64,000 bases of DNA, from NCBI RefSeq assembly GCF_048403405.1, contig NZ_CP183129.1; one strand, given 5' to 3'. Position numbers: made by a program. Below, one piece after another: positions 12,001 to 15,000 of the stretch. The first letter of the stretch is position 1, and each line of letters begins with the position of its first letter. Source of the DNA: Escherichia coli (GTDB lineage: Bacteria > Pseudomonadota > Gammaproteobacteria > Enterobacterales > Enterobacteriaceae).

Positions 12001-15000
12001 TTCCGCTAGTGATTCGTCGGTTGCAGCCGGAACAATGCGGTCGACCATGGTTCCCGGAAAACTGACGTGTTCTTTTATCCACCCGGCGAGTTCTGGTGAA
12101 CGTTTTTCCGCCATCCCCAGCACCGCGTTTTTCACCACATGGCCATTGTCGGGAATATTGTCGCAGGAGAGTACGGTAAACGGTGCAAGGCCGCGTTCAC
12201 GGCGTCGTTTCAGTGCTTCGACGAGAATACCCGGCGCGGAGTGAGGTTCTTCAGGGTTTTGTAGATCGTGAATAATCCGCGGATTGCTGGTGTCGAGTGC
12301 ACCGGTGGCCGGGTCAATACAATAGCCTTTTTCGGTAATCGTCAGGGAAACAATTGCCACCTGTGGCTCGCAAAACTTCTCAATAATTGCCGCTAAGGAA
12401 TCCAGTTTTGCATTCAGGCATTCGTGAACGGCACCGACAATTATCGCCTGATTGCCGTCCGCCCCTTTCTCCAGCACGGTATATAAATGGTTCTGTGCGC
12501 GGAGCTGGCTCATCAGTTGATCGCCGCTGAACAAGCTGATTTCACAGATCCCCCAGTCGCCGCCCTGGGCATTCAGCACACGATCGGTCAGTAATGCCTG
12601 ATGTGCGCGGTGAAAGGCACCAAAGCCAAAATGAACGATACGTGATTGCAACTGCTGGCGATCGTAGCGTGGAGCGTGTACATGATGCGGGAGCGTAACG
12701 GAGGCGATTGTATTCATAGGAGTCACGTCTTAGTAACGATTAATTAACAATGACAGTGTAAAGTTATATGACAGCAATTGAAATTGGTCTGGATTGTTAA
12801 TGCGATGAAGTGTGAGGGCGATCAATCAACGAGTGAATATTGCGGGCGTAAGGTGTTCAGGAAGCGCAAAATAGAAGATTGGTATAATAAATTAAAAAAG
12901 GGACAGCCTGAGCTATCCCTTTTCTGCATGCGGCTGAAGTTAGTCAGCACGCCCCATATAACGGCGTTCTTCGATATGGATACGAATTTTTTCGCCCGGG
13001 CTTAAGTATTCTGGTACCTGAATCACCAGACCAGTGCTCAATGTCGCCGGTTTGTTACGGGCGCTGGCAGATGCCCCTTTGATGCCAGGTGCGGTTTCAA
13101 CGATTTCCAGATCAACGGTCTGCGGCAGCTCAAGCGCCAGCAGTTGACCGTCCCAGGTCAGCACCTGCATGTCCGGCATGCCGCCCTCTGGCATAAACAG
13201 CAACTCTTCTTCAATCTGATCTTTGGTGAAGGTATACGGGGTATAGTCTTCTTTATCCATAAAGACATATTCGTTACCATCGACATAGGAGAAGTCAACG
13301 TAACGGCGGGTCAGAGTCACGGTGTCAACGATATCATCTCCTTTGAAACGCTCTTCTACTTTCAGCCCGGTACGGACATCAGAAAAACGCATTTTGTACA
13401 GCGTAGCGGCACCGCGGGCAGTGGGCGACTGAATATCAATGTCCTTAACCAGCAGCAGTTTGCCGTTGTAATTCAGTACCATACCTTTTTTAATTTCGTT
13501 CGCTCTTGGCATCGAAAAATTCCTGTAGTCGAAAATGTCAAAAATATCGCGACAAAGTACTCGCGACGGGCCTTTCGGGCAAGTGGTATTCGCACTTTTG
13601 CTGGTGCAAAAAAGGTGGTACTGTGCGCGCTCATCAATCCGGTGGTTAACCTTAAGAGAACAACGTATGGAATGCCGTCCGGGTTGCGGGGCGTGTTGCA
13701 CTGCCCCTTCAATTTCCAGCCCTATTCCCGGTATGCCAGATGGCAAGCCCGCCAATACGCCCTGCATTCAGCTTGATGAACAGCAACGCTGTAAAATTTT
13801 CACCTCGCCACTGCGACCGAAAGTTTGTGCGGGCTTACAAGCCAGCGCTGAAATGTGCGGTAACTCGCGTCAGCAGGCAATGACCTGGCTTATCGATCTG
13901 GAAATGCTGACCGCGCCTTAAACATCTTTAATCCGCAGTAAGCAAAACAGAGTGGCGATAATCATCACCATCGCAAACCAGAACACAGCGTGATAATTCC
14001 AGATCTCGGCGACGATGCCCGCCACTGATCCTGCGATGATCCAGCCCACGCGCGAAGTGTTGGTATAGAGCGTGGTGGCTGAACCTGCCTGACCGGGCAT
14101 CAAATCCTGAAAATAGAGCATCCCGATGCCGCCCAGAATGCCAATAAAAATAGCATTAAGCAGCTGCAAGCCCAACAGAATGACAGGTGAATGCGCCATC
14201 AGCATTCCTGCGTAAAAACAGACGCCACCCACGGCAGCAACGCGCATTAAGAAACGCTTACCCAAACGTTTGGCGAAATATCCGGCAATCAACATGGTCG
14301 GGATTTCCAGCCCGGCGGCGGTCCCCATCATCACACCGGCCAGTTTCTCGGGAAGATGCAGTTCGTTGATAATAAATAGCGGCATGTTGATGATGTACAG
14401 GCTGTTCGAGCCCCACATCAATGTACAAATGACAAACAGCAGCAGCGTATCGCGACGGTTACGGCGCGGCGCTTCAACCGTGCCGGTCGCCAGTGGAAGT
14501 TCTTTTTGCATCGACGGTAAAAACAGCCACACCATCACACCGCAAACAATAAACGCTACCGCTGCGCTCAGATACATTACCGTAAAGCTGAAACCCATCG
14601 CTAAGGCATAAGCCAGCGGCGGGCCAATGACCCATGCCAGTGAAACCTGAGCGCGTAAAAAAGAGCTGAACATCACCGCTTCACGTCCGGTTTTGTCAGC
14701 ATGTTCACGGGCGAGGGCAAACATTTGCGGGTTAGCAGTCGAGCCAAAGCTGCTAAGAAAGACGCCAACGAATAGCAAAACAAAGTAGTTGCGATTCCAG
14801 GCAAAAAGAGTGCAGGCCAGCACGCCTAACAGGCAGCAAAAGACAATCAGCGATTTGCGATCGCCGCGCTTATCAGAGCGCCCGGCGAGAAACTGACTTA
14901 CCAGAATCCCAATGACAGCGCTGCCGGTAAAGAAGAATCCCACCATCGCCGGGCGGGCATGTACTTCATCAGTAAGAAAAATACTGAGTGTCGGGGTTTG

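Follow-up and report, generated by a model that had tools for sequence, protein, structure and literature searches.

Genes and features at the locus

The window analysed here is a stretch of 64,000 nucleotides from an Escherichia coli genome (contig NZ_CP183129.1). It contains the convergent genes yeiW and setB, whose coding sequences, stop codons included, overlap by the four nucleotides of a TTAA tetramer (Table 1). On the + strand, positions 13916-13923 read CCT TAA AC. The yeiW frame opens with the ATG at 13667 and closes with Pro84 (CCT, 13916-13918) and the stop codon TAA (13919-13921). That of setB opens with the ATG at 15099; its last two codons are GTT for Val393 and the stop TAA, which are the reverse complements of 13921-13923 and 13918-13920, respectively. 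The two stop codons have positions 13919-13920 in common (2 nt). The RefSeq annotation agrees with these ends, both in locus L082, where the numbers are those of the window, and in locus L001 (yeiW 3268-3522, setB 3519-4700). Sequence and annotation bear out an initial reading of the sequence alone (the sequence-only reading), which had named both genes and described the interlocked stops at these coordinates. It had also stated that no intergenic space is left, and this is so, since the coding sequences overlap at 13918-13921. Because there are no intergenic bases, the 3' untranslated region (UTR) of either gene is necessarily antisense to its partner.

Annotation in window coordinates was taken from RefSeq for strain M217, which is 100% identical to the window over 13400-14400 and shows two differences in the first 32 kb. 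The segment 13400-14400 was matched in 5413 of 5426 complete E. coli genomes and yeiW is annotated in nearly all of the 5413. YeiW matches the Pfam family PF03692 (CxxCxxCC) with E = 7e-8, over the curated cutoff, and SetB matches MFS_1 with E = 1.6e-44. Clearly, both are genuine genes and they form an ordinary tail-to-tail overlap.

The gene yeiP (efpL) has the same direction as setB and is the next gene that a read-through setB transcript would enter. Directly upstream of it is a conserved promoter-like motif (TTGCCT, 17 nt, TAnTTT), which suggests that yeiP has a promoter of its own. An Rfam search of 12000-16000 gave zero matches at E <= 1.

Table 1. Features at and around the yeiW/setB junction, in window coordinates
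Feature	Coordinates	Strand	Evidence and remarks
yeiQ	11251-12717	-	RefSeq annotation
Strong intrinsic terminator-like hairpin with T6 run, after yeiP	12894..12925	-	14 pairs, -20.2 kcal/mol
yeiP (efpL)	12940..13512	-	ORF, Pfam, RefSeq; same direction as setB
Terminator-like hairpin with T tract	13546..13567	-	-10.3 kcal/mol; putative function
yeiW, 84 aa, YkgJ-family CxxCxxCC cysteine-cluster protein	13667..13921	+	ORF, Pfam, RefSeq, homologues
Hairpin GGGGCGTGTTGCACTGCCCC with TTCAA tail, inside yeiW (codons 8-15)	13688..13712	+	Terminator-like match; Term-seq end
TTAA tetramer	13918..13921	.	yeiW TAA interlocked with setB TAA; YTAR in 41/51 species
setB, 393 aa, MFS sugar efflux transporter	13918..15099	-	ORF, Pfam, RefSeq
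Stem with T7 run; the fruB ATG follows 44 nt downstream	15400..15423	+	Term-seq 3' end; permissive scan
fruB	15467-16597	+	RefSeq annotation

Conservation of the overlap

A scan with YeiW, using one genome per species, gave 563 homologues confirmed by tblastn, and the best 80 of these were taken as loci. The 80 are 65-99% identical to YeiW, essentially full length, and distributed across Enterobacterales and some Betaproteobacteria. The YeiW start and its C-terminus (..TAP) are conserved, as is the SetB C-terminus (..IKDV). The conserved frame, with its ..TAP end kept across homologues, fixes the position of the yeiW stop at 13919-13921 and leaves that assignment of the sequence-only reading standing. 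The gene order yeiP-yeiW-setB is also conserved.

In 51 of the best 80 species loci setB is the convergent neighbour of yeiW, and the 4-nt interlock is kept in 41 of these 51 species representatives. The tetramers found in the 41 species are TTAA (20), CTAA (18), CTAG (2) and TTAG (1), and the genera concerned include Escherichia, Citrobacter, Kluyvera, Enterobacter, Kosakonia, Buttiauxella, Rahnella and Cedecea. In the ten remaining species the two genes either stand +2 to +322 nt apart or overlap by 13 or 28 nt, and in nine of these species the yeiW stop is TGA. One of the ten (L041) carries CTGA at the position of the tetramer and has an overlap of 28 nt. A TAA-to-TGA change, which would have kept the yeiW stop and destroyed that of setB, thereby lengthening setB, is consistent with this junction.

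The arrangement can also be disrupted in other ways. In Salmonella, setB and yeiW are separated by the opvAB operon, which was acquired horizontally (PMC12902445). Rare E. coli strains have deletions in yeiW (EC18) or in the 3' end of setB. Erwinia and Pantoea have loci that retain yeiP next to yeiW, with no setB homologue detected in the 3 kb downstream of yeiW.

Reciprocal coding constraint

Each position of the tetramer serves both genes. The first (13918) is the third base of the YeiW Pro84 codon and pairs with the third base of the setB stop, and can be only T or C. The second and third (TA) are required by both stops. The fourth (13921) completes the yeiW stop and pairs with the third base of the SetB Val393 codon, and can be only A or G. 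In this 4-nt geometry TGA is impossible for either gene, and an insertion or deletion at the junction would find no intergenic base to absorb it. The species compared behave as expected from these rules: the Pro84 codon is only CCT or CCC, and the Val393 codon is always GTT, with zero synonymous entropy in 31 species, while four-fold sites nearby vary.

The interlock is conserved because of this reciprocal constraint from both reading frames; it would be retained since the two frames lock the tetramer, and not as a dedicated regulatory device. As the constraint explains the conservation, no selection on antisense transcription is needed. The junction thus provides a worked example of mutually constraining stops, with Pro84 limited to CCY, Val393 fixed as GTT and TGA excluded. 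If the stop of one gene changed from TAA to TGA, the other gene would be extended; L041 looks like such an outcome. The example also carries a caution: a conserved convergent overlap is not in itself a sign of antisense regulation.

Overlaps of this kind are well known, YTAR being the modal class among convergent ones. In 58 prokaryotic genomes the modal overlap length was 4 bp, any of four tetramers (CTAA, TTAA, CTAG or TTAG; that is, YTAR) can end two convergent genes, E. coli has 58 convergent overlaps, and a rho-independent terminator was predicted for only 20% of genes involved in convergent overlaps (Lillo & Krakauer 2007, PMC2174442). The yeiW/setB junction combines a 4-nt overlap, a permitted tetramer and two genuine genes; it belongs to this class and differs from it in nothing essential. 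Related species use the remaining tetramers (CTAA, CTAG and TTAG) at the same junction. The overlap itself is therefore already known: the class was described in 2007, the pair is included in a 2025 catalogue and it is annotated in thousands of genomes. What can be added to the description of the class is that, in this pair, the constraint is reciprocal at the level of codons and the arrangement persists across genera.

The window includes ten convergent pairs, three of which are spaced by 3 nt or less: yejG/yejF (+3), yeiW/setB (-4) and yehW/yohO (-20). The other seven have spacings of +31 to +372. As an isolated event the yeiW/setB overlap is not more than would be expected by chance; its conservation is not due to chance.

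Search for terminators and conserved structures

A consensus terminator scan of the + strand identified no terminator-like site between the hairpin inside yeiW (13688-13707) and 15500. The scans used are crude, and this one missed the experimentally supported site at 15400-15423, which a permissive scan recovered as 15400-15422. Within setB, past the yeiW stop, the permissive scan of the + strand gave only one weak candidate, at 14504 (-6.8 kcal/mol). On the minus strand past the setB stop, the consensus scan detected only the hairpin 13567-13546 and then the strong yeiP terminator (12925-12894). The former is located ~350 nt past the setB stop, beyond all of yeiW, and overlaps the conserved promoter-like motif upstream of yeiP. 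On either strand, the first plausible terminators lie beyond the partner gene and, if they are used, complete overlap of the transcripts is implied.

Alignments of 30 species were folded with RNAalifold. The 145 nt that follow the yeiW stop yielded 0 pairs, and the 255 nt that follow the setB stop no covarying helix (covariation term -0.28 kcal/mol); the helices there consist of invariant coding positions only. Conserved terminators embedded in the partner genes were rejected on these grounds. The claim of the sequence-only reading that the terminator of each gene must lie inside the coding sequence of the other is accordingly not supported, as there is no conserved structure, no site near the junction and only the weak candidate at 14504. 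Published Term-seq data (PMC7815308) lend it no support either, with no yeiW 3' end past the yeiW stop and none assigned to setB.

Synonymous variability (normalised codon entropy) over the last 30 setB codons is 0.59, compared with a gene mean of 0.665, and ranks 14th among 363 windows. The setB N-terminus has a synonymous entropy as low as this, and no reduction in synonymous variability was found in yeiW. We considered a hidden element in the 3' end of setB, but the constraint is too weak to argue for one, being only mildly low and equalled at the N-terminus.

Transcript ends at the locus

In their Term-seq data, Adams et al. (PMC7815308) place two 3' ends on the yeiW strand at this locus and assign none to setB or yeiP. 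The plus-strand rows of the Term-seq table have far lower counts than the minus-strand rows, and the absence of setB and yeiP from it is weak evidence. The first of the two ends is 44 nt from the yeiW ATG (MG1655 2265251/2265250, ~13711 in the window; PMC7815308, supplements 1 and 3), with an intrinsic terminator score of 6.97 and a Rho score of 1.36, which is not significant. It falls directly after the hairpin 13688-13707. Some yeiW-strand transcripts thus stop 44 nt into the ORF, before they reach setB.

For the most part, the stem of this hairpin is dictated by the codons for G-A-C-C-T-A-P of the CxxCxxCC motif. Of its five outer pairs, four are imposed by the Gly-Ala...Ala-Pro codons; the fifth, which is free, involves the third positions of Gly and Ala codons and is formed in only some species. 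A conserved attenuator was considered here and set aside; in E. coli we read the hairpin instead as a by-product of the coding sequence.

The second end is upstream of fruB (MG1655 2263539, ~15423 in the window), with a T7 run and an intrinsic score of 9.61 (PMC7815308). The site 15400-15423 is the first experimentally supported 3' end of intrinsic type on the yeiW strand downstream of yeiW, and is reached only after passing antisense through setB.

In the DirectRNA-seq data of the same study (PMC7815308), the 800 nt that follow the yeiW-internal end had 27 reads on this strand without bicyclomycin and 114 with it; for the 800 nt that precede the fruB-leader end the counts were 30 and 169, and downstream of the latter they were only 31 and 46. 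In the authors' own test neither 3' end was significant for Rho, and no Rho region was assigned to yeiW, setB or yeiP (PMC7815308). The counts, of a few tens, are consistent with Rho limiting transcription antisense to setB and with a backstop role for the fruB-leader terminator.

Other published data concern the expression of the pair. The region upstream of yeiW drives a vanillin-inducible reporter (4.3-fold) and yeiW is among the top vanillin-induced transcripts (PMC5291986), both of which support the expression of yeiW that the sequence-only reading had presupposed. The setB-yeiW pair is included among the 165 convergent excludons of MG1655 identified with ExcludonFinder, where transcription units defined by RNA-seq must overlap in 50% or more of 58 transcriptomes; excludon pairs in that study are more syntenic than other pairs (PMC12288877). 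The antisense overlap of the two transcripts, which the sequence-only reading had deduced, had thus already been reported (PMC12288877). Overall that reading is partly supported, with geometry and antisense overlap holding, whereas terminators within the partner genes and transcriptional interference, in the sense of altered expression of the pair, are not supported. The supplements of the SMRT-Cappable-seq work make no mention of the genes of this locus.

Interpretation of the overlap and its transcripts

The explanation that we favour, and consider probably correct, is that the 4-nt tail-to-tail overlap is passive and is maintained by the two reading frames, and that untranslated and probably Rho-limited read-through into the partner gene gives rise to the reported transcript overlap. 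Since neither gene has an intrinsic terminator of its own near the junction, RNA polymerase coming from each would probably run on, antisense, into the partner. Past each stop codon the polymerase would continue without translation of its product, and termination would probably be diffuse and brought about by Rho. Where Rho fails, setB-strand transcripts would end at 13567-13546 and then at 12925-12894, the final stop for minus-strand read-through, and those of the yeiW strand at 15400-15423. The reported convergent excludon would correspond to the low-level transcript overlap that results from this read-through.

Rho and NusG suppress antisense and untranslated transcription in E. coli. RNA past the yeiW and setB stops, being both untranslated and antisense, is a classic substrate for Rho, and reads antisense to setB do increase 4- to 6-fold with bicyclomycin; however, the published test found no significant Rho termination region at the two scored positions (PMC7815308).

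A different view of the same data is that the transcript overlap is itself selected, yeiW transcription (for example, under vanillin or aldehyde stress) repressing setB and vice versa. This would occur through collision of polymerases and cleavage of the sense-antisense duplex by RNase III, resulting in mutually exclusive expression. The pair resembles convergent excludons (convergent genes, transcripts reported to overlap and a very short intergenic distance, here zero) and is named in the E. coli list, whose members show higher synteny (PMC12288877). The geometry is retained in 41 of 51 species, the yeiW upstream region responds to vanillin (4.3-fold; PMC5291986) and a terminator between the two genes was not found. 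Nevertheless, two coding frames explain the conservation fully, the overlapped 3' regions carry neither conserved structure nor clear additional synonymous constraint, and the arrangement has been broken repeatedly, both in the ten of 51 species and by the opvAB island in Salmonella (PMC12902445). The pair also differs from regulatory excludons in that some of the transcripts on the yeiW strand stop short of setB, 44 nt into the ORF, and in that mutually exclusive expression and RNase III processing of a setB-yeiW duplex are undocumented for it: the literature searched reports no pair-specific data or expression test. We therefore regard such a functional excludon as unlikely, while retention across many genera and the synteny of excludons leave room for selection on the transcript overlap itself. 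Alternatively, setB transcripts could pass antisense through yeiW into yeiP, so that setB and yeiP are co-expressed as a noncontiguous operon and yeiW is silenced. The layout setB (-), yeiW (+), yeiP (-) has the required topology, with only the opposite-strand yeiW between two genes of the same strand, a conserved order and a single modest terminator-like site (13567-13546, -10 kcal/mol) between the setB stop and yeiP. Against this, the locus is absent from the three E. coli cases and yeiW-yeiP from the divergent excludons of ExcludonFinder (PMC12288877), yeiP-yeiW is conserved in Erwinia and Pantoea where setB was not found within 3 kb downstream of yeiW, and the promoter-like motif suggests that yeiP is transcribed from its own promoter. 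This makes co-expression of that kind highly improbable.

In a broader version, which we find distinctly doubtful, the whole yeiP-yeiW-setB block would be one regulatory unit (a true excludon or a noncontiguous operon) with the interlock selected to guarantee overlap. Transcription of setB on the minus strand would then cross antisense yeiW and the yeiP promoter, induced yeiW transcription would run antisense through all of setB to the fruB-leader terminator, and SetB (sugar efflux), the EF-P paralogue EfpL (YeiP) and YeiW would be expressed in a mutually exclusive manner. At the other extreme, the overlap might be an artefact of annotation, with yeiW not real or its true stop elsewhere and hence no overlap. 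This could be argued from the short length of yeiW (84 aa) and how poorly it has been studied, from the fact that the main 3' end detected on that strand falls inside the ORF, and from its deletion in rare E. coli strains (EC18). It is, however, almost certainly wrong and was rejected on conservation: the match to the Pfam CxxCxxCC family is over the curated cutoff, there are 563 tblastn-confirmed homologues (the best 80 at 65-99% identity, with conserved start and ..TAP end), and yeiW is annotated in nearly all of the 5413 E. coli genomes with a stop fixed by the conserved frame.

A passive overlap of this type matters little in itself. If the pair were a working excludon, it would connect sugar efflux with an EF-P paralogue and with a cysteine-cluster protein inducible by stress, and would be of interest to specialists in bacterial transcription without changing the field.

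Other possible elements at the junction

SEnd-seq work on E. coli reportedly revealed bidirectional intrinsic terminators between convergent genes. As with the yeiW/setB junction, the matter at issue there is how two convergent transcription units come to an end in a common space. Such terminators, however, consist of a G+C-rich intergenic hairpin flanked by A and T tracts, and none is predicted or conserved at the yeiW/setB junction. With no intergenic space, no hairpin at the junction, 0 pairs predicted on the + strand and no covarying helix on the minus strand, this junction is not a bidirectional intrinsic terminator.

We also considered a dif-like Xer site. The best match to E. coli dif in the window is 16/28 and in Enterobacter-group loci at most 17/28; none of these matches is at the junction, and the candidate was rejected. 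EcloIMEX elements are said to integrate nearby, between setB and yeiP.

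3' ends within yeiW and upstream of fruB

The published Term-seq data place a transcript 3' end within the yeiW ORF itself, 44 nt in and directly past a hairpin (PMC7815308). This hairpin arises from the codons for the CxxCxxCC motif, and its stem is largely dictated by the amino-acid sequence. The 3' end has an intrinsic terminator score of 6.97 and three entries in supplement 1, which has one sheet per growth condition; it is not discussed in the main text of that paper (PMC7815308).

Features in and around the yeiW/setB locus and other close convergent gene pairs (window coordinates)
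Feature	Coordinates	Strand	Basis or spacing
Hairpin and 3' end within yeiW	13688-13712	+	Published Term-seq
3' end in fruB leader, at a T7 run	15400-15423	+	Published Term-seq; 44 nt before the start codon of fruB (ATG at 15467)
Conserved motif in the yeiW-yeiP intergenic region	13535-13605	-	Conservation among species
yehW and small gene yohO, convergent	62899-62918		20-nt overlap
yejG and yejF, convergent	1070-1072		3-nt gap

On the other side of setB, the 3' end in the fruB leader is strong, with an intrinsic score of 9.61, and is classed as 'orphan'; with bicyclomycin, reads upstream of it increase from 30 to 169 and those downstream from just 31 to 46 (PMC7815308). Our consensus terminator scan did not pick up this site. 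It could correspond to an attenuator in the fruBKA leader or to a short RNA, and could also serve as a backstop to transcription antisense to setB. A genomic SELEX survey of minor sigma factors reports a binding peak within setB (old MG1655 coordinate 2262454; type D, intragenic; tabulated under a heading that refers to flagella). This peak could mark an internal or an antisense promoter.

Conserved motif between yeiW and yeiP

The intergenic motif (CTTGCCTGAA...CGCGAGTAnTTTGnCGCGATATTTT) is strongly conserved in the Enterobacteriaceae and partially in the Erwiniaceae. It reads as a sigma-70-like promoter for yeiP (TTGCCT, a spacing of 17 nt and TAnTTT). The putative promoter overlaps a palindrome, CGCGA-N8-TCGCG, which also folds as a hairpin and is followed by a T tract. 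The motif is a candidate promoter, operator or terminator of setB read-through.

Insertions and deletions at the locus

In Salmonella, the horizontally acquired and phase-variable opvAB operon sits between setB and yeiW, at the junction orthologous to window 13918-13921 (PMC12902445). In the Enterobacter cloacae complex, integration 'between setB and yeiP' is described for the EcloIMEX elements, which are Xer-dependent and carry blaIMI/NmcA. The neighbourhood may be a recurrent insertion site. A scan of E. coli and of a set of Enterobacter-group loci turned up no convincing dif-like sequence.

Natural deletions at this locus are rare in E. coli. In strain EC18 (locus L084, 2411-2520), a deletion internal to yeiW introduces a premature TGA and leaves both the TTAA and setB intact. 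In strain N24 (locus L085, 2768-3746), the 3' end of setB is missing, with yeiW fused to what is left of the sequence. Both genes appear to be dispensable.

Other convergent pairs and comparison with strain M217

Two further close convergent pairs occur in the window, yehW/yohO and yejG/yejF, both of which also feature among the published excludons of E. coli (PMC12288877).

Compared with strain M217, used as the annotation reference, indels begin near window position 32406, where cirA sits (annotated as frameshifted in M217), and the net coordinate shift reaches 191 nt by position 63000.
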